Of a DNA stretch of 15,276 nt, positions 916-12,973 are shown piece after piece. Position 1 is the first letter of the stretch. Every line of letters begins with the position of its first letter. The position numbers were made by a program, and so were the translations under genes. The DNA lies in IMG/VR virus record IMGVR_UViG_2687453449_000002; one strand, written 5' to 3'. The notes beneath the pieces were generated by a model that was given only the letters and a program-made list of their open reading frames with translations, was not told the origin of the DNA and did not search any database. The DNA comes from a virus (taxonomy: Duplodnaviria; Heunggongvirae; Uroviricota; Caudoviricetes).

Positions 916-1107
916 TTAAAGACCTGCCGGGATTTCGATATTATCCTGGTGAATAACTTTATCGACCGGGTAACAGTTACCGGGAATTTTCTGTTCGGTT
1001 GCTGCAGTCATACACTCCTGCATTGTCCTGTGAACACTGTCTGCAATATCAACTGGCTCTCCGGAAACAAGAAAAACTGTCAGAACAAGCGCAAATGCTG
1101 AATTCAT
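916..1107 (-). CDS. ydfD: Small membrane/lysis protein YdfD-like (63 aa)
   Basis: Internal start MNSAFALVLTVFLVSGEP... within the 81-aa track ORF gives a 63-aa protein with a hydrophobic N-terminus; its ATG overlaps the dicB stop in an ATGA arrangement (1104-1107), indicating translational coupling. Confidence 0.6.
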   Translation of the reverse strand: MNSAFALVLTVFLVSGEPVDIADSVHRTMQECMTAATEQKIPGNCYPVDKVIHQDNIEIPAGL

Positions 1108-1292
1108 TGTGTACATCCTTTTGGCATCAGACGTAAACGAGCCAGCATTGAAACAATGCATATTTTATTTAATAGCTCCCGTTCTTGTTTTCTCTTGTTA
1201 ATGGCATCTTCAGTAAATACAGGGTTACTGATAGTGACACCAATTTCAAAACAACCTTCAGACGTATTAACGTTTGGTAATAACGTTTTCAT
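1104..1292 (-). CDS. dicB: Cell division inhibitor DicB (62 aa)
   Basis: Internal start of the 97-aa track ORF gives MKTLLPNVNTSEGCFEIGVTISNPVFTEDAINKRKQERELLNKICIVSMLARLRLMPKGCTQ, recognised as DicB; GAGGA Shine-Dalgarno 7 nt upstream; lies downstream of DicF as in Qin. Confidence 0.9.
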   Translation of the reverse strand: MKTLLPNVNTSEGCFEIGVTISNPVFTEDAINKRKQERELLNKICIVSMLARLRLMPKGCTQ

Positions 1293-2661: not shown

Positions 2662-3069
2662 TTATTTTATTGATTTATTTTTACGCGCTTTAAGCATTTC
2701 TTCGAAGAGTTTGTTGAAGTTTTCTACTCTTGCGCGCATTTCAGACAGCAAGGCTTCCTGCTCGGAAGATGGAAGAGCATCGAATAATTCGATCAATTCT
2801 TTGTGGTTGGGAGTTAGCTCTGTTTCCACATGAAGTTCTTGTGCAGGCACTGGTGCCTTGTCTTCGTCACCAAACATTAGCCATGTAGGTGAGCACTTCA
2901 GAGCATCCGCTAAAGCAAACAATCGTTTTCCGACTGGCTGGGTTTCGTCTCTTTCCCATTGTGAAATTGTGACGTGAGCAACTCCAGCGAGGCGCGCAGC
3001 TTCTCGTTGTGTTAAGCGTAATTCTTTTCGTCGCGCCAGAACTCGCTGGCCTAGGGTTCTTGTATCCAT
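2662..3069 (-). CDS. dicA: HTH-XRE repressor DicA (cI-like), 135 aa
   Basis: N-terminal HTH (LRLTQREAARLAGVAHVTISQWERDETQP), the C-terminal segment MRARVENFNKLFEEMLKAR remembered from DicA, correct length, and divergent from a cro-like dicC. Confidence 0.85.
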   Translation of the reverse strand: MDTRTLGQRVLARRKELRLTQREAARLAGVAHVTISQWERDETQPVGKRLFALADALKCSPTWLMFGDEDKAPVPAQELHVETELTPNHKELIELFDALPSSEQEALLSEMRARVENFNKLFEEMLKARKNKSIK

Positions 3070-3149
3070 AGTTAGGTAATTCTAATTTTTCTTGACTTAG
3101 GTATCCCGCGCACAATAATGTTAGAAAAGTCTAACAAGAGGGGGCTTTG
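3070..3149. promoter_or_regulatory. dicA/dicC divergent promoter-operator region
   Basis: Two palindromes GTTAGG-taat-TCTAAT (3071-3086) and GTTAGA-aaag-TCTAAC (3120-3135); rightward promoter candidate TTGACT (3092-3097), 16-17 bp spacer, AATAAT/ATAATG (3114-3120), the second palindrome overlapping the -10/+1; GAGGGGG Shine-Dalgarno before dicC. Confidence 0.65.
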
Positions 3150-3377
3150 ATGCTTAAAGTTGACGCAATTACTTTTTTTGGCAGCAAAACAAAGCTTGCC
3201 AATGCCGCAGGAGTGAGACTGGCAAGTGTTGCTGCTTGGGGGATACTGGTTCCTGAAGGTCGCGCGATGCGTCTACAGGAGGCATCTGGCGGGGAGCTTC
3301 AGTATGATCCCAAAGTTTATGACGAATATCGTAAGACGAAGCGGGCGGGGCGGTTGAACAATGAAAATCACTCCTGA
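3150..3377 (+). CDS. dicC: Cro-like regulator DicC (75 aa from the ATG; the track ORF begins 3 nt earlier at TTG)
   Basis: MLKVDAITFFGSKTKLANAAGVRLASVAAWG...RLQEASGGELQYDPKVYDEYRKTKRAGRLNNENHS, recognised as DicC-like; divergent from dicA; Shine-Dalgarno 6 nt upstream of the ATG at 3150. Confidence 0.8.
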   Translation: MLKVDAITFFGSKTKLANAAGVRLASVAAWGILVPEGRAMRLQEASGGELQYDPKVYDEYRKTKRAGRLNNENHS

Positions 3378-3882
3378 ACAGGCTCGTGAGGCTCTGGATG
3401 CCTGGATATGTCGACCAGGAATGACACAGGAGCAGGCGACGATATTAATCACTGAAGCATTCTGGGCTTTGAAAGAGCGCCCGAACATCGATGTTCAGCG
3501 TGTCACATATGAAGGTGGCGCGGTTGATCAGCGAGCGCTTAGCGTTAATCGAGTGAAGATATTCGAACGCTGGAAGGCTATCGACACCAGGGATAAGCGT
3601 GAAAAGTTCACAGCGCTAGTGCCTGCAATTATGGAGGCTATCCGGATTAGTGATTTCAGGTTGTATCGTGAGATCAGTGATGGAAAAAGTATTACGTACA
3701 TGATCGCCGGGTTAAATAAAGAATATGGCGATGTGGTGGAATCCGGACTGCTTTTTGCAGATCCTGCCGTTGTAGATCGTGAAACTGACGAACTTATAGA
3801 AAAAGCAATTGCTTTCAAGCTTGCGTATCGACAGCAATACCAACAAAAAGCTGGATGGAATTATGAGTCTTCTTTTTGCTGA
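3361..3882 (+). CDS. cII-position early protein, possibly YdaT-family (173 aa)
   Basis: ORF immediately after the cro-like gene, with its start overlapping the dicC 3' end; family assignment is by position and weak recollection only. Confidence 0.5.
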   Translation: MKITPEQAREALDAWICRPGMTQEQATILITEAFWALKERPNIDVQRVTYEGGAVDQRALSVNRVKIFERWKAIDTRDKREKFTALVPAIMEAIRISDFRLYREISDGKSITYMIAGLNKEYGDVVESGLLFADPAVVDRETDELIEKAIAFKLAYRQQYQQKAGWNYESSFC

Positions 3883-4828
3883 ACGCCCACTGGTTATAAA
3901 CACGCAGCTGGCAATGAAAATCGGCTTAAACGAAGCCATTGTTTTGCAACAACTGCACTACTGGTTGAGAGATACCAACTCCGGTATGGAATGTGATGGT
4001 GTTCGCTGGATTTATAACACAACGGAACAATGGCTGGAACAGTTCCCATTCTGGTCAGAGTCAACGTTAAAGCGCGCGTTTGCAAGTCTGAAAACGCTGG
4101 GGCTTTTGCGTTGTGAAAAGCTCAATAAATCAAAGCGCGATATGACCAATTTCTACACGATCAACTATGGGAGCGAGCTTTTAGATGGTGGCAAATTGAA
4201 CGAATCCATCGGTTCAAAATGCGCCGCTCCATCAGGTCAAAATGACACGATGGAAGAGGTCAAAATGAAACGCTCCATTGGTTCAAAACGATCCAATGTC
4301 ATCGGGTCAAAATGGCCTGATGATCTTACAGAGAATACAACAGAGATTACTACAGAGAATAAAAACACTTTTCGTCCGGAAGCTTCGCAACCGGACCCGC
4401 AGACGACTGAACAGGATTTTTTAACCCGGAACTCCGACGCGGTTGTGTTTAGTGCGAAAAAACGCCAGTGGGGTAGCAGGGAGGATTTGGCGTGTGCGCA
4501 GTGGATCTGGGGGCGGATCGTGGGTCTCTACGAACAGGCAGCCAGTGATGATGGCGAGATCATGCGACCAAAAGAGCCTAACTGGACTGCCTGGGCCAAT
4601 GACGTGCGCACAATGCGGATGCTGGATGGCAGAAGCCACAGACAAATTTGCGAAATGTTTGGTCGGGTTCAGCGAGATCCATTCTGGGTAAAAAACATCA
4701 TGAGCCCGTCAAAGCTCCGCGAAAAATGGGACGAACTGGTCATCCGCCTGGGACGTTCACCTGTACAGCGTTGTGTTAATCATATTTCTGAACCGGATAC
4801 AGAAATTCCGCCTGGTTTCAGAGGATAA
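3863..4828 (+). CDS. Phage replication initiation protein (lambda O / YdaU-like replisome organiser), 321 aa
   Basis: N-terminal domain resembling replisome-organiser HTH (LNEAIVLQQLHYWLRDT...STLKRAFASLKTLGLLR), a central linker encoded by iteron DNA, and a distinct C-terminal domain; start chosen at ATG 3863 (MSLLFAERP), overlapping the upstream stop by 20 nt. Confidence 0.7.
   Translation: MSLLFAERPLVINTQLAMKIGLNEAIVLQQLHYWLRDTNSGMECDGVRWIYNTTEQWLEQFPFWSESTLKRAFASLKTLGLLRCEKLNKSKRDMTNFYTINYGSELLDGGKLNESIGSKCAAPSGQNDTMEEVKMKRSIGSKRSNVIGSKWPDDLTENTTEITTENKNTFRPEASQPDPQTTEQDFLTRNSDAVVFSAKKRQWGSREDLACAQWIWGRIVGLYEQAASDDGEIMRPKEPNWTAWANDVRTMRMLDGRSHRQICEMFGRVQRDPFWVKNIMSPSKLREKWDELVIRLGRSPVQRCVNHISEPDTEIPPGFRG
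4204..4314 (+). repeat. Five direct iterons (putative prophage replication origin) inside the replication initiator gene
   Basis: Core GGT(T)CAAAA(T/C)G ending at 4221, 4244, 4267, 4290 and 4314 (23-24 bp periodicity), several with a TCCATC prefix; followed by an A-rich ACAGAGA-repeat stretch (4315-4365); encodes IGSK peptide repeats. Confidence 0.65.
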
Positions 4829-4868: not shown

Positions 4869-5291
4869 GTGGCAAAAGTTTTTACACAAGAAGAGCGGGA
4901 AAAAATTAAAGGGCAGGTGGTGGAACTCGTGCGCCAGAGCGGTCGTGAGACGTTACGGCAACTGGAAGCTAAAACAGGTGCGACTAGATATCTGATGAGC
5001 GTTCTTGCCAGAGAGCTGGTAGCCAGTGGCGATGTATACAACTCCGGCTACGGGTTATTCCCGTCTGAACAGGCGCGTAAGGACTGGCAAAACGCCCGCA
5101 AAAAACTCTCGAGGGCAAAGGTGAAGAAACCTGCTGTGGTTGATCCGGACCTTATCTGGTCATTACCTGATGGAGAAATACGCCGCTACGACAGTCGTCT
5201 AAACATAATCTGTCGCGAGTGCCGGAAGAGCGAAGTTATGCAGCGTGTTCTGACGTTTTATCAGGGGAATTATCGGGAGGTGATGCTGTGA
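4869..5291 (+). CDS. Hypothetical 140-aa protein, possible winged-helix DNA-binding protein
   Basis: GTG start at 4869 preceded by AAGGGGGAG Shine-Dalgarno; coherent ORF MAKVFTQEEREKIKGQVVELVRQSGRETLRQLEAKTGATRYLMSVLARELV...; no family recognised. Confidence 0.55.
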   Translation: MAKVFTQEEREKIKGQVVELVRQSGRETLRQLEAKTGATRYLMSVLARELVASGDVYNSGYGLFPSEQARKDWQNARKKLSRAKVKKPAVVDPDLIWSLPDGEIRRYDSRLNIICRECRKSEVMQRVLTFYQGNYREVML

Positions 5292-5521
5292 GTACATCGG
5301 CTACCATTCTCGACATGTGCTGTGGCAGTCGCATGCTCTGGTTCGATAAGAATGACGAATGGTCGATATTTAGCGATATCAGGAAAGAGGAACATTCGCT
5401 ATGTGATGGACGTCACCCGATTATTAATCCCGACATTATAGCTGATTTTCGTGCGCTGCCGTGGTTGTCTGCTTTGCATCAAAAGCAGACATTACCAGAT
5501 TTAGACATCTGTTTCCGATAG
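5288..5521 (+). CDS. Short ORF (77 aa from GTG 5288) with a SAM-methyltransferase motif-I-like segment; possible gene fragment
   Basis: GTGA start/stop overlap with the 140-aa ORF; contains [15 protein letters not shown], resembling the glycine-rich SAM-binding motif; too short for a complete methyltransferase. Confidence 0.3.
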
Positions 5522-5553
5522 CCCGTTCTGATGCTACACTTTTTGCTATTTTC

Positions 5554-6240
5554 ATGAACCTCATAAACACATTTATGACTGTTGCTGATTTCAAACGCCC
5601 CAAATTGGAGCTCCCAAACGGGGCAAAAAAACTATTACTGCACTCTTGCTGTGCTCCATGTTCCGGTGAAGTGATGGAGGCGCTTCAGGCCTCGGGAATC
5701 GACTACACCATCTTTTTCTACAACCCGAACATTCATCCTCAGAAAGAGTATTTAATTCGTAAGGATGAGAATATTCGCTTTGCTAAACAACACGGCGTGC
5801 CATTTATTGATGCTGATTACGACACAGACAACTGGTTTGAGCGAGCCAAAGGAATGGAATGGGAGCCTGAACGAGGGATCCGTTGTACCATGTGTTTTGA
5901 CATGCGTTTTGAGCGGACTGCGCTGTATGCCGCTGAAAATGGTTTCAGTGTGATCAGTAGCTCACTGGGCATTTCACGCTGGAAAAATATGCAGCAGGTT
6001 AACGACTGTGGACGGCGAGCCGTCGCGTATTATCCGGGCATGGTGTACTGGGATTATAACTGGCGAAAGCAGGGCGGCTCTTCCCGCATGATTGAAATCA
6101 GCAAGCGCGAACAATTCTATCAGCAGGAATATTGTGGCTGCGTGTATTCACTGCGCGATACCAATCTACACCGCAAATCTCAGGGACGCCCTCTAATCAA
6201 AATTGGTCAACTCCACTACGGTAAAGAAGGCCAGGAATGA
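5554..6240 (+). CDS. queH: QueH-family (DUF208) epoxyqueuosine reductase-like protein; start uncertain (GTG 5461, ATG 5554 or ATG 5575)
   Basis: Hallmark [13 protein letters not shown] near the N-terminus and EYCGCVYS near the C-terminus, consistent with the cysteine motifs of DUF208/QueH as remembered; about 220-260 aa; no clear Shine-Dalgarno at any candidate start. Confidence 0.65.
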
Positions 6241-6353: not shown

Positions 6354-6687
6354 ATCTTGTTGAAATTAGAGGAAATCTTGCAGCCATGATATGGCTTAAA
6401 ATAACGTTTGATTATTTTACCTGCTGTTTGTCCCTGGTTTAAAGTCGGTTGTCTGATTTGATTACGCGCAACTGACGCTTACGTATTGAAGTAACGAGCA
6501 CGAAGACACATATTTATCAGTGCCTGTATACGTCAAGAGCAGGAGATTTATGTGCTGGTTCTCAAATGCACGCTGGCTATTGTGGCTGTAATGGCAATTT
6601 ATTGTCTTGTTATTGTTCTTATGGATCACCTTTCTGATTGATTTCATATTGGAGAGGTAACGGTAGTTAAGTAGAATGGCTGCGGGT

Positions 6688-6852
6688 GCTTGAGGCTATC
6701 TGCCTCGGGCATGAACACCAACGGCAGATAGAGAAAAGCCCCAGTTAACATTACGCGTCCTGCAAGACGCTTAACATTAATCTGAGGCCAATTTCATGCT
6801 AGACACATGTAGGTTAGCCTCTTACGTGCCGAAAGGCAAGGAGAAGCAGGCT
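6688..6852 (+). promoter_or_regulatory. hok mRNA 5' leader with tac/ucb-like elements and an in-frame mok-like upstream start (6796)
   Basis: Sequence ggtgcttgaggctatctgcctc...ggcagatagagaaaagcccc...agcctcttac...gcaaggagaag resembles the conserved structured leader of hok-family mRNAs. Confidence 0.5.
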
Positions 6853-7008
6853 ATGAAGCAGCAAAAGGCGATGTTAATCGCCCTGATCGTCATCTGTTTA
6901 ACCGTCATAGTGACGGCACTGGTAACGAGGAAAGACCTCTGCGAGGTACGAATCCGAACCGGCCAGACGGAGGTCGCTGTCTTCACAGCTTACGAACCTG
7001 AGGAGTAA
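6853..7008 (+). CDS. hokD: Hok-family type I toxin (51 aa), HokD/RelF-like
   Basis: MKQQKAMLIALIVICLTVIVTALVTRKDLCEVRIRTGQTEVAVFTAYEPEE: single transmembrane helix and conserved Hok C-terminus; AAGGAGAAG Shine-Dalgarno upstream. Confidence 0.9.
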   Translation: MKQQKAMLIALIVICLTVIVTALVTRKDLCEVRIRTGQTEVAVFTAYEPEE

Positions 7009-7821: not shown

Positions 7822-8097
7822 CGTGCGGGTATTACTTCGACCTGTTCTGGTATGGCTTACAGCCGTGTGTCGACCTTCTCCGGGGATTATCTCCGCGTAA
7901 CTGACAACAAGGGGAAAACGCACGATGTGCTGACCGGAAGTGATGACGGTCGCCACAGCAACACGTCTCTGGCGTGGGGGGCTGGCGTGCAGTTTAACCC
8001 GACCGAATCCGTGGCCATTGACCTTGCTTATGAAGGTTCCGGCAGTGGTGACTGGCGCACTGACGGTTTCATCGTGGGTGTCGGTTATAAATTCTGA
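7822..8097 (+). pseudogene. lom: lom (Ail/Lom outer-membrane protein) 3' fragment lacking the N-terminal half
   Basis: Encodes ...SLAWGAGVQFNPTESVAIDLAYEGSGSGDWRTDGFIVGVGYKF, matching the C-terminal beta-strands of Lom/Ail/PagC; no signal peptide or N-terminal barrel portion upstream. Confidence 0.7.
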
Positions 8098-8150: not shown

Positions 8151-8161
8151 GTGGAGTGGAT

Positions 8162-10540
8162 ATGGCAGCAGTAAAAATCTCAGGTGTGCTGAAAGATGGT
8201 GCGGGAAAACCAATACAGAACTGCACTATTCAACTGAAGGCAAAGCGTAACAGCACCACGGTACTGGTGAACACGGTAGCCTCTGAAAATCCGGATGAAG
8301 CCGGGCGTTACAGCATGGATGTCGAGTATGGCCAGTACAGCGTCACCCTGCTGGTTGAAGGTTTTCCGCCTTCACATGCCGGAACCATTACCGTCTATGA
8401 AGGTTCCAGACCTGGTACGCTGAATGATTTTCTCGGTGCCATGACGGAAGATGATGTCATGCCGGAGGCATTGCGTCGTTTTGAGGCAATGGTGGAAGAA
8501 GCAGCACGCAACGCTGAAGCCGCCTCTCAGAGCGCAGCGGCAGCAAAGAAATCAGAAACAGCAGCGGCATCATCGAAGAACGCGGCGAAAACCTCAGAAA
8601 CGCATGCAGCTAACAGCGCACAGGCGGCAGCGGCCTCGCAGACTGCATCGGCAAACTCCGCGACAGCAGCTAAAAAATCAGAAAACAACGCGAAAAATAG
8701 CGAGACAGCAGCAAAGACGAGCGAAACCAACGCAAAGTCCAGCCAGGCGGCAGCGAAAACAAGCGAAACGAATGCCAAAACCAGTGAAACTGCGGCGAAA
8801 AGCAGTCAGGCTGCAGCAGCCGAAAGCGAGAGTGCGGCAGCCGGTTCTGCGACTTCAGCAGCTGGATCAGCAACTGCTGCAGCTAACAGCCAGAAAGCAG
8901 CGAAGACGAGCGAAACTAACGCAAAGTCCAGCCAGACGGCAGCGAAGACCAGCGAAACGAATGCCAAAGCCAGCGAAACTGCGGCGAAAAACAGTCAGGA
9001 TGCAGCGGCCCAAAGCGAGAGTGCCGCAGCTGGTTCTGCAAGTGCGGCGGCTTCTTCTGCCACTGCATCAGCCAACAGTCAAAAAGCTGCAAAAACCAGT
9101 GAAACCAACGCAAAGGCGAGCGAGACTGCGGCGGCTAACTCGGCGAAAGCATCCGCTGCAAGCCAGACGGCTGCAAAAGCAAGTGAAGACGCAGCCAGAG
9201 AGTATGCAAGCCAGGCTGCGGAGCCGTATAAACAAGTTTTGCAGCCGCTTCCCGATGTGTGGATACCGTTTAACGATTCACTGGATATGCTTGCTGGCTT
9301 TTCGCCTGGTTATAAGCAAATAACTGTAGGTGATGATGTTATTAAAATGCCATCCGATAAGGTTGTTAGCTTCAAACGCGCATCAGGTGCAACATACATT
9401 AATAAATCAGGAGTATTAACCGTTGCTGAAGTTGACGAACCGCGATTTGAACGAGAAGGTTTGCTGATTGAAGGACAAAGAACCAACTATCATCTTAATT
9501 CACTTACGCCATCTAAGTGGGGAGCTACAACAAGTGTAACTATAACAGAAAGTGGTGTTGATGAGTTTGGCTTTACTTATGGGCGGTTTCAAATAAAGGA
9601 CGAAAAAATTGGGACAAATACGACAATGAATATCGCTGCGGTTTCAGGAGGAAGAGGTGTCGATGTTACTGGAACTGAAAAGTATGTTACAACATCATGT
9701 CGTGTAAAAAGCGATAGTGCTAATATACAATGTCGTATAAGATTTGAAAGATATGACGGGTCCGCATATTTTTATCTGGCAGATGCATATCTTAATATAA
9801 CAGATATGTCCATTAGGAAAACGGGAGGAGGGGCTGCAAGAATAACCGCCCGAGCGGAGAAAGAATCTAATGGATGGATTTATTTCGAGGTTACATATCA
9901 ATCTGAAGCTATTGATAATATGGTTGGCTCTCAGATCCAAATTGCTCCACCTGTTTCACCTGGAACTTATTTGGGCGGGGAATATTTGGATGTTACGACA
10001 CCACAATTTGAAGGCGGCTCATGCGCATCATCTTTTATCATTTCCGATACAGTTGCATCAACGCGAGCAAGCGATATTGTTACATTGCCTTGTAAAAATA
10101 ACATGGCCAGCAAACCTTTAACCTGCATGGTTGAAGTGAATAAAAATTGGTCTATAGCACCAAATTCCGCGCCTAGAATTTATGATATAACAGGATTTAA
10201 AACAAAAGACGACGCTTTTGTTTTTGCATTCAGAAATACAGCAGGTAGTGTAGGAACTCCATATGTTCAATTTGGTAATCCAATATCATTTCCACCTGGA
10301 AATTACCCAAGAAAGATTATCGCTGTATATAGAATAAAAAGCGATGGCAAGTTTCAGGCTGGCTGCAATGGGGTTTTATCAACACCAGCATCAACAACGT
10401 GGAAGAGTGTTAGTGGTGCTACAGGTATAAGGATTGGAGGCCAGACTACAGCCGGCTTACGTCATTTATTTGGTTATATCAGGAATTTTAGAATATGGCA
10501 TAAAGAATTAACCGATGCGCAAATGGGAGAGATAATATAA
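8162..10540 (+). CDS. Side tail fibre protein (Stf), mosaic: lambda-Stf-like N-terminal domain, Ala/Ser/Thr repeat shaft, divergent AT-rich C-terminal receptor-binding region (792 aa from ATG 8162)
   Basis: N-terminus MAAVKISGVLKDGAGKPIQNCTIQLKAKRNSTTVLVNTVASENPDEAGRYSMDVEYGQYSV... matches the remembered lambda Stf N-terminus; GGAG Shine-Dalgarno before ATG 8162 (the track ORF starts at GTG 8156); C-terminal end ...FGYIRNFRIWHKELTDAQMGEII resembles a LamG/ConA-like lectin domain. Confidence 0.9.
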   Translation: MAAVKISGVLKDGAGKPIQNCTIQLKAKRNSTTVLVNTVASENPDEAGRYSMDVEYGQYSVTLLVEGFPPSHAGTITVYEGSRPGTLNDFLGAMTEDDVMPEALRRFEAMVEEAARNAEAASQSAAAAKKSETAAASSKNAAKTSETHAANSAQAAAASQTASANSATAAKKSENNAKNSETAAKTSETNAKSSQAAAKTSETNAKTSETAAKSSQAAAAESESAAAGSATSAAGSATAAANSQKAAKTSETNAKSSQTAAKTSETNAKASETAAKNSQDAAAQSESAAAGSASAAASSATASANSQKAAKTSETNAKASETAAANSAKASAASQTAAKASEDAAREYASQAAEPYKQVLQPLPDVWIPFNDSLDMLAGFSPGYKQITVGDDVIKMPSDKVVSFKRASGATYINKSGVLTVAEVDEPRFEREGLLIEGQRTNYHLNSLTPSKWGATTSVTITESGVDEFGFTYGRFQIKDEKIGTNTTMNIAAVSGGRGVDVTGTEKYVTTSCRVKSDSANIQCRIRFERYDGSAYFYLADAYLNITDMSIRKTGGGAARITARAEKESNGWIYFEVTYQSEAIDNMVGSQIQIAPPVSPGTYLGGEYLDVTTPQFEGGSCASSFIISDTVASTRASDIVTLPCKNNMASKPLTCMVEVNKNWSIAPNSAPRIYDITGFKTKDDAFVFAFRNTAGSVGTPYVQFGNPISFPPGNYPRKIIAVYRIKSDGKFQAGCNGVLSTPASTTWKSVSGATGIRIGGQTTAGLRHLFGYIRNFRIWHKELTDAQMGEII
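8700..9200 (+). repeat. About 2.5 imperfect tandem copies of a ~189-bp (63-codon) unit within the stf shaft region
   Basis: Repeat starts near 8707, 8897 and 9083; encodes AAKTSETNAKSSQ...AAAGSA...ANSQK units; also creates spurious long ORFs in other frames. Confidence 0.8.
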
Positions 10541-10821
10541 TGCGAGATTTAATTATCAAATTCACAGACAAGGCCGACTTTTCGGCCTTTATGAAGAGTG
10601 CTGGCTATTATGATGACGAGTCGATGCAGGATGATATTCTTATTGACGTGATAGGTAACGTGTACAAAGAAACCGGAGAACTTACTGAAGATGGCGAGCC
10701 GGTATGTGTTAAGGAAGACGGATATTTTGTAAACGTGCGCATCATTAATGATGCAAAAAAATCGTCAATATTCGATAAATACGCGGTTGTTGTTGAGCAT
10801 CAACTTCGTGGCTGGATGTGA
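10540..10821 (+). CDS. Hypothetical acidic 93-aa protein downstream of stf (possible tail fibre accessory protein)
   Basis: ATG overlaps the stf stop (TAATG); AT-rich like the stf 3' region, suggesting co-acquisition; no family recognised. Confidence 0.5.
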   Translation: MRDLIIKFTDKADFSAFMKSAGYYDDESMQDDILIDVIGNVYKETGELTEDGEPVCVKEDGYFVNVRIINDAKKSSIFDKYAVVVEHQLRGWM

Positions 10822-10830
10822 GGCAGGAAA

Positions 10831-11535
10831 ATGGCTACATCGACAGTAATTCCAGGAGATATCACCAAGCTAAAGGGGGATGTCAGTAAAGCTAAGGAAG
10901 ATATTTCATCAATTAGCAGAAAAGTATCAACGCTTCAGACTGAGATGACCAGTGCAAAGCAGGATATCAGCTCCAGATACACAAAAACTGAAGTTGATAA
11001 TAAGCTGAAAAACAAAGTGGAAGTGAACGATCTGGAAAGTGGTCGTTATGGCGGAGATTTTTATCCACTGACAGGTCGTGAAGCGTTTTATTTATGGAAT
11101 TTGGCCACGACTACAGCGGCGGCAAACCTTTATCTTAATCCTGACCCTGCAATTTCGTCTGTGCTGCGGTCAACATCGTCTATCCGCTATAAACATTCAG
11201 TAGAGACAATAGATTCAGAGCACGCCGATCTCATTTTCAGGATGCGCCCTGTGTGGTACAGGTCGCAATGCGAAAATGACAGGCGTGACTGGGGATTCTA
11301 CGGATTGATTGCCGAGGAAGTAGGAGAAATTGCTCCTCAGTTTGTACACTGGCGACCAGCTAACGAAGATGATGCTCCTGAAGCTATTTCCAGCAATGGC
11401 CTTGTTGCCGAAGGTGTAATGTACGAACGTCTGGTTGTTCCACTGATTCACCATATCCAGAAACTGACTGAAAGAGTTGATGAACTTGAGTCAGAATTAA
11501 AGTTGTTATTAACTTCCCGAAGCGATATTAGATAA
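10831..11535 (+). CDS. 234-aa protein with a C-terminal peptidase-S74-like intramolecular chaperone domain and an N-terminal coiled-coil-like segment
   Basis: C-terminal half ...SSIRYKHSVETIDSEHADLIFRMRPVWY...GFYGLIAEEVGEIAPQFV...LVAEGVMYERLVVPLIHHIQKLTERVDELESELK fits the remembered S74 pattern (Ser ... Lys dyad, GxIAQEV-like motif, terminal helix); GAGG Shine-Dalgarno 7 nt upstream. Confidence 0.6.
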   Translation: MATSTVIPGDITKLKGDVSKAKEDISSISRKVSTLQTEMTSAKQDISSRYTKTEVDNKLKNKVEVNDLESGRYGGDFYPLTGREAFYLWNLATTTAAANLYLNPDPAISSVLRSTSSIRYKHSVETIDSEHADLIFRMRPVWYRSQCENDRRDWGFYGLIAEEVGEIAPQFVHWRPANEDDAPEAISSNGLVAEGVMYERLVVPLIHHIQKLTERVDELESELKLLLTSRSDIR

Positions 11536-11545
11536 AGGAGGAGTA

Positions 11546-11839
11546 ATGGATATAACACCTTTTCTTCATGCGCTTTGTGCTGTGGCTGCGCAGACACTGG
11601 TTGGTCTTTTTACCGGAAACTGGGCTTATGGGGCGATAGCTGGTTGTACGTTCTTCATTGCGCGTGAACACACCCAGGCAGAATATCGCTGGATTGAAAT
11701 GTTCGGGCATGGCAAGCGGATTAACATGCCGTGGTGGGGCGGTTTTGATCCGCGTGTTTGGGATGTGGCAAGCCTGATGGATTTTGCTGTGCCGGTGGTG
11801 GCGTGTCTGCTGATCTGGCTGTTGGTTAATCGTGGGTGA
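11546..11839 (+). CDS. Hypothetical 97-aa hydrophobic protein, probably membrane-associated
   Basis: Strong AAGGAGG Shine-Dalgarno immediately upstream; two hydrophobic stretches (ALCAVAAQTLVGLF and FAVPVVACLLIWLLV). Confidence 0.6.
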   Translation: MDITPFLHALCAVAAQTLVGLFTGNWAYGAIAGCTFFIAREHTQAEYRWIEMFGHGKRINMPWWGGFDPRVWDVASLMDFAVPVVACLLIWLLVNRG

Positions 11840-11849
11840 AAAAAGGTGA

Positions 11850-11969
11850 GCTGTATATGCAACGGAGGAAGAAACCCCGTTGCTGGAAGCCAGGAAAAAG
11901 TATCGGGTGTTGCTGAACCGTGTTGATACGTCAACTGCACAGGATATTGAATGGCCAGCACTGCCGTAG
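11850..11969 (+). pseudogene. tfa: 3' remnant (last ~39 codons) of a tail fibre assembly gene (tfa)
   Basis: Frame encodes [39 protein letters not shown]-stop, matching the conserved C-terminus of Tfa/Mu U-type assembly proteins; no start codon or N-terminal region; sits right before the pin 3' end. Confidence 0.7.
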
Positions 11970-12066
11970 GGTAAAACATATAAATTCTATAATTAGATGT
12001 ATCTTTCCATTTACGGCAAGGAAGGGGGCTTGGAAGACGTAAAGCATCTCACACCGAGATTATTTT

Positions 12067-12657
12067 TTATATGTCAGGTGTCTGAAGTTTTGCTTTGGCT
12101 CTTAAAATGGTTTGCCGCGAGGTTTTGAATTCCCGGGCAATGGCACTTATACTTACACCTGACTTAATCCGTTCGAATACCACCTGTTTCTGTTCTTCAT
12201 TTAACACAGGTGGTCGACCAAAACGTTTCCCTGCGCCCCGGGCTCTTACTATCCCGGAATGAGTGCGTTCAAGTAAAAGGTCTCGTTCAAATTCAGCGAC
12301 TGCTGAAATTACTTGCATCATCATTTTTCCTGTTGGACTGGTCAGGTCAATGCCCCCCAATGCTAAGCAATGCACTCTGATACCTGTTTCGGTCAGTTGT
12401 TCCACTGTTTTCCTGATATCCATTGCATTACAACCAAGGCGATCCAATTTTGTCACAATCAATTGATCACCACATTTCAGGCGAGCAAGCAACCGGTTAA
12501 AACCAGGACGCTCACTGGTTGCTGCTGAGCCGCTAATGTGTTCTTCGATTATTTGCTGAGGTTTGATTTTAAAACCTGCACTTTCGATTTCCCGGCGTTG
12601 ATTTTCGGTGGTCTGATCCAGCGTTGATATCCGACAGTAAGCAAAAATTCGAGACAT
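12067..12657 (-). CDS. pinQ: Serine recombinase, Pin-family DNA invertase (196 aa)
   Basis: [20 protein letters not shown]... with the catalytic Ser in YCRISTLDQ, a resolvase/invertase catalytic core and a C-terminal HTH ([17 protein letters not shown]); convergent with stf/tfa, as in Qin and Rac. Confidence 0.9.
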
Positions 12658-12724: not shown

Positions 12725-12973
12725 TGTGCATATTTGTATGTACACGTTCGAAAATAAACGAATGCGTATGCAACCCCGTAATTTTGGTGAGACCCAAAAT
12801 CGATTTTGTGAAAAATGGCTTTAACTCGGTTTGTTTTTCGAGTTCCAGGCGGACTCAAGGAAGAAGAATAGTGTTGCGTGTTATTTTAACCAGATTTCAA
12901 GTTGTTTGGTCGTGGAAAAGTGGAGCAAAATGTTGTTAAAGTGGAAAAATGATAAAAAAGTAAGTTAATTATA

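Follow-up and report, generated by a model that had tools for sequence, protein, structure and literature searches.

The window analysed here, a 15,276-nucleotide stretch of DNA from a Caudoviricetes virus record (IMGVR_UViG_2687453449_000002), probably contains at positions 4184-4364 the replication origin of a lambda-like (Qin/CP-933O-type) prophage, embedded in the linker-coding part of the prophage's own initiator gene (3863-4828, plus strand). A lambda-like origin is well supported by comparison with related phages. As an origin that lies inside its initiator gene it is of a known kind, and the way in which it recruits a helicase is possibly new. In the mechanism that we propose, dimers of an N-terminal winged-helix domain would bind five or six 23-bp palindromic iterons (CATCnGGTCAAAATGACCnGATG), and their assembly, aided by rightward transcription from a promoter at 3092-3119, would open an A-rich tract of 12-bp repeats at 4327-4364. 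A lambda-O-type C-terminal domain and a disordered tail would then bring in the host helicase, with the tail, which resembles the end of the host protein DnaT, perhaps making direct contact with host DnaB-DnaC, or with some other partner of DnaT, to recruit it and so taking the role of lambda P.

A repeat search of the window identified a 23-nt unit present five times on the plus strand: iteron 1 (4207-4229; CATCGGTTCAAAATGCGCCGCTC), iteron 2 (4230-4252; CATCAGGTCAAAATGACACGATG), iteron 3 (4253-4275; GAAGAGGTCAAAATGAAACGCTC), iteron 4 (4276-4298; CATTGGTTCAAAACGATCCAATG) and iteron 5 (4300-4322; CATCGGGTCAAAATGGCCTGATG), with start-to-start spacings of 23, 23, 23 and 24 nt. Each unit also matched the core G(G/T)TCAAAA(T/C)G, with ends at 4221, 4244, 4267, 4290 and 4314, reproducing the five direct repeats at 23-24-bp intervals that the original prediction had read from the DNA. 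The better units share the consensus form of an imperfect palindrome (CATCnGGTCAAAATGACCnGATG), and iteron 2 is a near-perfect one. A degenerate unit, iteron 0 (4184-4206, plus strand; GATGGTGGCAAATTGAACGAATC), lies in register 23 bp before iteron 1 with four mismatches to the core consensus, and the same slot holds a good unit in two relatives (loci L003 and L004). Across all 15.3 kb of the window, the strict core GGTCAAAAYG was found at three places, each of them inside the array; in 200 dinucleotide-preserving shuffles the mean was 0.09 and none reached three. Tandem Repeats Finder picked up one array of period 23 at 4205-4278 and another of period 12 at 4328-4361. The latter corresponds to the A-rich ACAGAGA-repeat tract that had been noted after the iterons, which we resolved into three 12-bp repeats of the form (T/A)ACAGAGA(A/T)TA(C/A) at 4327-4364 on the plus strand (TACAGAGAATACAA, AACAGAGATTACTA and TACAGAGAATAAAA). 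No further iteron cluster matching the core was found elsewhere in the window.

The whole array and the 12-mers lie within the open reading frame (ORF) 3863-4828, where five good units and a degenerate one occupy 4184-4322. The repeats encode residues 108-167, that is, the linker between the N-terminal and C-terminal domains. Because a 23-nt period cannot hold a reading frame, the repeat is a feature of the DNA and not of the peptide. The cores of the six successive units are read in frames 2, 1, 0, 2, 1 and 1, and one DNA core is translated as (G)SK, GQND and EVKM within the linker (ESIGSKCAAPSGQNDTMEEVKMKRSIGSKRSNVIGSKW).

The initiator itself (321 residues; RefSeq WP_000054497.1) matched the PHROG family phrog_391, 'replication initiation O-like', with an E value of 1.4e-91, its residues 17-321 aligning with positions 11-298 of the 298-position profile. 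No Pfam family was matched at E <= 0.01, Phage_rep_O and RepA_N included. AlphaFold2 modelled the N-terminal domain (residues 1-107; 3863-4183, plus strand), which presumably binds the iterons, with a mean pLDDT of 84.7 and the order of helices and strands typical of a winged helix. The best fold matches of this domain in the PDB were the iteron-binding N-terminal domains of staphylococcal plasmid RepA proteins (4pql, 5kbj and 4pt7), although the similarity was modest (TM 0.55-0.57, 15-17% identity, E about 2e-3). Homologues of the domain with 46-79% identity were present in phages of both Gram-negative and Gram-positive hosts. The C-terminal domain (residues about 190-296; 4430-4750, plus strand) is homologous to that of lambda O, as indicated by BLASTP, phrog_277 and phrog_2357, and forms a helical bundle in the model, with pLDDT 83-89 over most of its length. 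Profile searches of both domains against PDB sequences returned no match.

The window and lambda have several features in common. In each, several dyad-symmetric iterons about 20-24 bp apart (four annotated ori iterons inside O, in the case of lambda) lie within the initiator gene between the regions encoding its two domains, and an A/T-rich, purine-skewed tract stands to their right. The operon order is also common to both, running from a cI-like gene through cro, a cII-like gene and the initiator to a gene in the position of ren. The C-terminal half of the initiator is 34% identical to residues 130-270 of lambda O over 153 residues (BLASTP, E 1e-26), and a homologue of lambda P is paired with a sister allele of the window initiator. 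The original prediction had likened the site to the lambda ori and its linker-coding iterons; this likeness holds for their position and for the C-terminal domain but not for the N-terminal domain, which is unrelated in sequence to that of lambda O, with no Phage_rep_O match and a BLASTP alignment that runs only from residue 142 onward. The two systems also differ in iteron sequence (GGTCAAAATGACC in the window compared with TCCCTCAAAACGAGGGA in lambda), in the A-rich tract, which is made of ordered 12-bp repeats only in the window, and in what lies at and beyond the end of the initiator, where the window has no P gene and a DnaT-like C terminus in place of the ...TNTDWIYGVDL ending of lambda O. 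By sequence, the window protein is an initiator of the O type whose origin-recognition module differs from lambda's, and its combination of an O-type C-terminal domain with an unrelated N-terminal domain fits the modular exchange of N-terminal domain plus ori against C-terminal domain in lambdoid phages.

Two other known systems bear comparison. Staphylococcal RepA_N-type initiators (pSK41/pTZ2162 RepA; 4pql, 4pt7 and 5kbj, described as 'initiator' or 'Rep-DNA complex') contain a winged helix, but they resemble the window protein at the level of fold only, belong to plasmids rather than phages and have a different C-terminal domain. The iterons of these plasmids also lie within the rep coding sequence. 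The replisome organiser G38P of Bacillus phage SPP1 binds repeats in its own gene, beside an AT-rich region. An SPP1 oriL system is cited in PMC5737612.

To compare diversity, we drew on a phage collection; a scan of viral contigs with the N-domain alignment, which returned near-identical E. coli prophages only, was used for allele counts. Nine loci were read: the window, E. coli phage mEp460_4F5, Klebsiella phages Kp4882-3 and SopranoGao, Staphylococcus phage fPfSau02, Erwinia phage PEp14, Pseudomonas phages AF and 8P, and Bacillus phage BMBtp2. In all nine, the array follows the N-terminal domain, at the same position, and is itself followed by CAGAGA-type repeats. The repeats are conserved in homologous replication genes, a point on which the original prediction had made itself open to refutation. 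The period was 23 bp wherever more than one unit was detected (Pseudomonas phage AF has one unit and a weaker second). The last core of the window begins 24 nt before the first CAGAGA, and this distance was 24 nt in six of the nine loci and 21-47 nt in the other three.

The sequence of the units follows the adjacent protein domain. A consensus of GGTCAAAATGACC (CATCAGGTCAAAATGACCCGATG) is common to the E. coli, Klebsiella, Staphylococcus and Bacillus phages, whose N-terminal domains are just 47-79% identical, and the core DNA is identical between the E. coli and Staphylococcus phages although their linker peptides differ. The units of PEp14, AF, SopranoGao and 8P instead read GAAGAGGGCAAAATGCCCCGATC, with GGGCA....TGCCC half-sites in which a T-to-G change on the left is mirrored by an A-to-C change on the right. 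The predicted recognition helix of these four is WS(V/E)DT(V/I)KR, compared with WSESTLKR. More distant N-terminal domains have repeats of their own in the same place, in units of 22-24 bp overall: ACCGACAAAATGGCGGA in Vibrio phage C2, 22-bp repeats (TTGCAAAATTGCAA) in a Bacteroides phage, palindromic 24-bp repeats (TTCACnAAnATGTGAA) in Lactobacillus phage phiLdb and palindromic repeats (TCGCCGAATTCGGCGA) in Burkholderia phage BcepMigl. The Klebsiella phages share only the block of N-terminal domain, iterons and 12-mers with the window (78% DNA identity), after which the sequences diverge. Position and period are thus retained while the site sequence shifts with the adjacent DNA-binding domain, as expected of initiator-iteron pairs. 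Together, position, dyad symmetry and co-variation suggest that the N-terminal domain binds the iterons. The layout of N-terminal domain, palindromic 22-24-bp units and CAGA(G/T)A repeats of about 12 bp recurs in phages of E. coli, Klebsiella, Erwinia, Pseudomonas, Staphylococcus, Bacillus, Lactobacillus, Bacteroides and Burkholderia.

The 12-mers form an A-rich tract with a purine-rich top strand. The 50 nt at 4320-4369 have a G+C content of 0.30, the minimum for the gene, and an AT skew of +0.43. From its position and low stability, and by comparison with the A/T-rich stretch that lies to the right of the iterons in lambda, this tract is the best candidate for the region of unwinding and helicase entry, and binding of the initiator may lead to its opening at 4327-4364. 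Repeats of the form (A/T)AC(A/C)CAGA(G/T)A, spaced every 10-15 bp (mostly 12), begin a few bases past the last iteron in 13 of 14 loci. They also follow the iterons in an Stx2 phage O gene that has a different N-terminal domain, different iterons and a different C-terminal domain, and that has 40 bp in common with the window at 97.5% identity. The O gene of Stx2a phage Stx2_14040 (locus L012, 2340-2500) has a different N-terminal domain and its own GGGAAA-containing repeats, yet the same TACAGAGAATAC 12-mer tract, and the tract thus behaves as a module common to unrelated initiators; after this O gene come genes annotated as a DNA helicase and a replication protein. The peptides encoded by the tract vary (TENTTEITTEN, IPETTQRIPETT, IPDSIYTDSYT and IPDINQIKNSDN) while the DNA motif persists, and synonymous codon positions are fixed within it. 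(T/P)(E/D) dipeptides were encoded by xCAGAx in 23 of 27 cases in the tract compared with 9 of 40 elsewhere in the same genes, a comparison that includes genes of 58-60% G+C and a statistic that shared ancestry inflates. We know of no prior description of the 12-mer repeat.

A GATC (Dam) site at 4322-4325 marks the junction of the last iteron and the first 12-mer (TGATGATCTTACAGAGA). The junction GATCTT is kept in E. coli and Klebsiella phages, in Pseudomonas phage 8P and in the Stx2 phage O gene, and a second GATC lies inside iteron 4 (4291-4294). Involvement of DnaA was not supported, as matches to the DnaA box TTWTNCACA occur in the window only at 4880-4888 and 12807-12815, no more than expected by chance. 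A lambda-like palindrome to the right of the A-rich tract (GTCCGG..GCAACCGGAC) was also set aside; it was seen only in close enterobacterial relatives and was undetected in the window itself.

The C-terminal 21 residues of the initiator (VQRCVNHISEPDTEIPPGFRG; 4763-4825, plus strand) copy the very end of the host primosomal protein DnaT. They matched DnaT residues 159-179 in PDB chains 2ru8, 6aep and 9zbt_D, and residues 302-321 alone aligned with positions 160-179 of the NCBIfam DnaT model (NF002770), scoring 16.4 bits against a cut-off of 201. BLASTP likewise aligned the last 20 residues only, at 70% identity to residues 160-179 of Salmonella DnaT. E. coli DnaT has just the last 20-21 residues, ..VN.(I/V)SEPD..IPPGFRG, in common with the window protein (70% identity), the N-terminal and C-terminal domains of which do not match DnaT. 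Where phage records call the gene "Primosomal protein I", as some do, the name is therefore due to the tail alone. AlphaFold2 predicted the tail to be disordered (pLDDT <50).

This tail is found on at least five different initiator architectures: the window protein and, at loci L094-L098, the initiators of Stx phage 75/02 and phage Tritos, Gifsy-2 O, Rac YdaU and the initiator of phage SPN1S, which, unlike the window protein, has the whole DnaT C-terminal domain as well as the tail. The last 19 residues in 75/02 and the last 20 in Tritos are identical to those of the window, whereas the rest of these proteins is unrelated, suggesting that the ..VNxISxPDxxIPxGFRG tail has been exchanged as a cassette. 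In 75/02, Gifsy-2 and Rac, which represent three of these architectures, the gene directly after the initiator encodes a DnaC homologue, mirroring the host order of dnaT and then dnaC. All phages in which the tail was found infect Escherichia, Shigella, Salmonella or Klebsiella, and those members of the N-domain family that come from Staphylococcus, Bacillus, Pseudomonas and Erwinia phages lack it.

The original prediction had also stated that no gene for a DnaC- or P-like helicase loader follows the initiator. This is correct for the window, in which the next gene (4869-5291, plus strand) is a DUF977/LygF gene (Pfam DUF977, E 5e-29; PHROG 'Ren-like exclusion protein') and not a helicase loader. 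The suggestion drawn from it, that the replication module may be incomplete, was not supported: annotated phages share the loader-less layout, and alleles with the tail lack P whereas a tail-less sister has it. This sister allele (P0036) has the same N-terminal domain, iterons, 12-mers and gene context but ends in ...DWNSADGWEDVL without the tail, and is followed by a Phage_lambda_P gene (PF06992) and then by DUF977 (locus L100). In E. coli and Citrobacter, P is missing from the alleles that bear the tail. Across 80 genomic loci with lambda-O-type C-terminal domains, with each distinct C-terminal end counted once, P adjoined none of nine GFRG-type ends and 28 of 34 other ends (Fisher p = 9e-6). 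The genes that follow tail-bearing initiators are mutually unrelated (DUF977, PerC-like, ParB-HTH, Dam, MT-A70, DUF1627 and DUF1064), indicating that there is no conserved phage partner. No loader lies next to the initiator in the annotated genomes of mEp460_ev081, PhiR42_1, Tritos and SPN1S, and in the first three of these the initiator is followed by DUF977. We considered and rejected DUF977 as a substitute loader, as it coexists with P or DnaC homologues in L100, Rac and phage 75/02.

Given the mutual exclusivity of tail and P in these genomes, we hypothesize that, through its tail, the initiator can employ a host partner of DnaT, most plausibly DnaC-DnaB, in place of P. A broader version of this idea, which we offer tentatively and regard as possible rather than likely, is that the approximately 20-residue ..VNxISEPDxxIPPGFRG peptide is a portable docking motif for host helicase loading, again most plausibly through DnaC-DnaB, such that an O-type initiator carrying it would need no P. 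Host DnaT would, on the same tentative footing, use this motif in replication restart, and a large number of enterobacterial phage initiators would have copied it.

The initiator is widespread. A 2.1-kb query from the window was 100% identical to E. coli B REL606, where RefSeq names the initiator "hypothetical protein", and was matched in 4,604 of 5,426 complete E. coli genomes. We found 4,279 homologues of the initiator, in Escherichia, Citrobacter and Salmonella, and those with a name were mostly called 'hypothetical'. The gene and array together have 99.5% identity to their counterparts in phage PhiR42_1 and exact matches in many E. coli genomes, and the ORF is intact at 321 residues in most of 80 viral-contig loci. 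Within E. coli, variable sites made up 3-5% of the block of N-terminal domain, iterons and 12-mers compared with 17-20% of the remaining linker and C-terminal domain, a pattern that reflects mosaicism; the population data thus favour neither side. Several E. coli protein clusters (P0016-P0021) contain 290-residue alleles in which ESIGSK is joined directly to WPDD. These result from an in-frame 93-bp (four-unit) deletion, corresponding to window positions 4222-4314, that fuses iteron 1 to iteron 5 and leaves at most two units, as recombination between the repeats would be expected to do. Truncations or frameshifts within the array were seen in a few alleles from viral contigs, and alleles of 144 and 169 residues are frameshifted there. 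Both the deletion and the frameshift alleles are natural candidates for origin-defective variants.

Several points weigh against or limit parts of this account. Within E. coli, the iteron cores are no better conserved than the coding sequence of the N-terminal domain. The 12-mers are always in one frame and encode a TExT-like peptide, such that constraint at the level of protein is possible, and the codon statistic given above is inflated by ancestry. The window prophage lacks a block of late genes, which makes activity in this genome uncertain. The literature searched yielded no paper on this initiator family, nor any experiment on its binding, unwinding or origin activity. With respect to the tail, it also occurs on initiators accompanied by a phage DnaC homologue and hence cannot be regarded just as a substitute for a loader. 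In the preprimosome structures published in 2026, the DnaT C-terminal domain is modelled over residues 84-153 only, leaving out the tail, and the authors, who state that the route of DnaB/DnaC recruitment is unknown, suggest that the DnaT N-terminal domain may recruit DnaB/DnaC (PMC13377028).

Four other explanations have to be set against an origin at 4184-4364. The DNA repeats might exist only because the peptide linker is repetitive and serve no purpose as DNA, as the single-frame 12-mers (TENTTEITTEN) and the similar TExT peptides of relatives could be taken to indicate. For the iterons, however, this is contradicted by a period that is not a multiple of three and a core read in three frames, as well as by the identical cores but different linker peptides of the E. 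coli and Staphylococcus phages, and the synonymous positions fixed in the 12-mers argue against it there, so that we consider it extremely improbable. The iterons could also be initiator sites that serve control only (autoregulation, a roadblock to transcription or copy-number handcuffing), with replication starting elsewhere. Plasmid iterons serve both initiation and control, and the array does lie within a transcribed operon downstream of the promoter at 3092-3119. Yet an A-rich tract, where the gene's G+C is lowest, invariably adjoins the array, much as an A/T-rich stretch adjoins the lambda iterons, the layout matches that of the annotated ori iterons inside lambda O, and the window offers no other core-matching cluster. 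A role in control alone is therefore improbable, if less so than a peptide by-product.

The two remaining explanations accept the origin but question its present state. In one, a P- or DnaC-like loader was lost by deletion, leaving the initiator and origin as a dead relic. The lack of a loader gene after the initiator would fit this, as would the P carried by the sister allele, the fragment of a methyltransferase gene just downstream and the remnant nature of the prophage, in which hokD/rem run into a lom fragment and tail fibre genes. We nevertheless judge it unlikely: the order without P recurs in the annotated phages mEp460_ev081, PhiR42_1 and Tritos, SPN1S is also loader-less, all nine distinct tail-type ends lack P and are followed by unrelated genes, and the ORF is intact in most of the viral-contig loci. 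This loader-less pattern across tail-type ends fits a stable design rather than repeated loss. In the other, the origin is of the right kind but is inert in this genome, as part of a permanently repressed and decaying defective prophage. Truncation of the prophage, the presence of the cI-like repressor gene (2662-3069) and the iteron deletions and frameshifts in other strains all point this way, and this is a minority reading that nonetheless deserves some weight. Against it, gene and array are nearly or fully identical to those of PhiR42_1 and many E. coli genomes, and the promoter, cro, the cII-like gene and the initiator are intact.

If 4184-4364 is an origin, it would close an annotation gap, as recognizing an initiator with an embedded origin would replace 'hypothetical' for a gene present in most sequenced E. 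coli and also in Citrobacter and Salmonella. It would also mark a site of possible local over-replication should the prophage be derepressed. The module of winged helix, 23-bp palindromic iterons and 12-bp CAGA(G/T)A repeats spans Enterobacteria to Firmicutes and Bacteroides, and the co-variation of half-sites with N-terminal domains offers a system in which initiator-iteron specificity can be studied and which can help to predict phage origins. The mutual exclusivity of the tail and lambda P on otherwise equivalent initiators nominates a 20-residue peptide for recruitment of DnaB/DnaC. If this is true, prophage genes would point to the long-sought contact through which DnaT hands the fork to DnaB/DnaC, and a lambda-like origin would fire with a single phage protein. 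Searches for the iteron core together with 'replication', or for PPGFRG, found no paper, although the subscription literature may hold some, and those for an 'initiator-solo' module or for mEp460 replication found nothing useful. The P-less, DnaT-tailed form and the conserved 12-mer module thus appear undescribed in the literature searched.

The initiator lies in a lambdoid region for immunity and replication, of the Qin/CP-933O type. Domain and PHROG matches identified a cI-like repressor gene (2662-3069, minus strand), a P22-Cro-like gene (3147-3377) and a YdaT/cII-like gene (3361-3882). A consensus scan found a sigma-70-like promoter, TTGACT-16-AATAAT (10 of 12 matches), at 3092-3119 on the plus strand, upstream of the cro-like gene. 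It is likely the equivalent of pR and would read rightward through cro, the ydaT/cII-like gene and the initiator, and across the origin. Promoter, cro, cII-like gene and initiator are all intact in the window. Further to the right, the order is hokD/sok, the lom fragment, tail fibre genes, a Pin-type invertase gene and a host MFS transporter gene. The Q, lysis, head and tail genes have been lost, part of which the otherwise identical REL606 prophage (L093) keeps. The missing late genes, which would normally lie between rem and the lom fragment/tail fibre genes, mark the window prophage as a remnant, and its origin is therefore probably silent while the cI-like repressor is made.

Other features of the window were noted in passing. 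The DicF antisense RNA lies at 1467-1518 on the minus strand (Rfam RF00039, 72.5 bits), with ydfD and dicB just to its left (about 916-1292, minus strand), which confirms a Qin-type prophage. Beyond DUF977, a truncated methyltransferase gene (5219-5521) is immediately followed by a gene for epoxyqueuosine reductase QueH (5461-6240, with the RefSeq start at about 5575; Pfam E 4e-65), and a queuosine-pathway enzyme is unusual cargo beside a phage replication module. A hokD/sok type I toxin-antitoxin locus occupies 6684-7008, where the sok RNA (RF01794, 115 bits) overlaps the Hok/Gef ORF at 6796-7008. Of a Lom-type outer membrane protein, just the C-terminal 81 residues are left (7852-8097), directly after the rem region. 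The tail fibre gene at 8156-10540 (phage_tail_N domain) contains 2.3 copies of a 189-bp tandem repeat at 8699-9133, together with nested repeats of 42 bp and 21 bp in which codons for Ala, Ser, Lys and Thr are abundant. A gene for a Pin/Gin-type serine invertase (12067-12657, minus strand) is adjacent to tail-fibre and tail-fibre-chaperone ORFs at 10831-11535 (plus strand) and 11626-11979 (minus strand), and the stretch from 10540 to 12657 resembles the invertible host-range segment of e14 or Mu.

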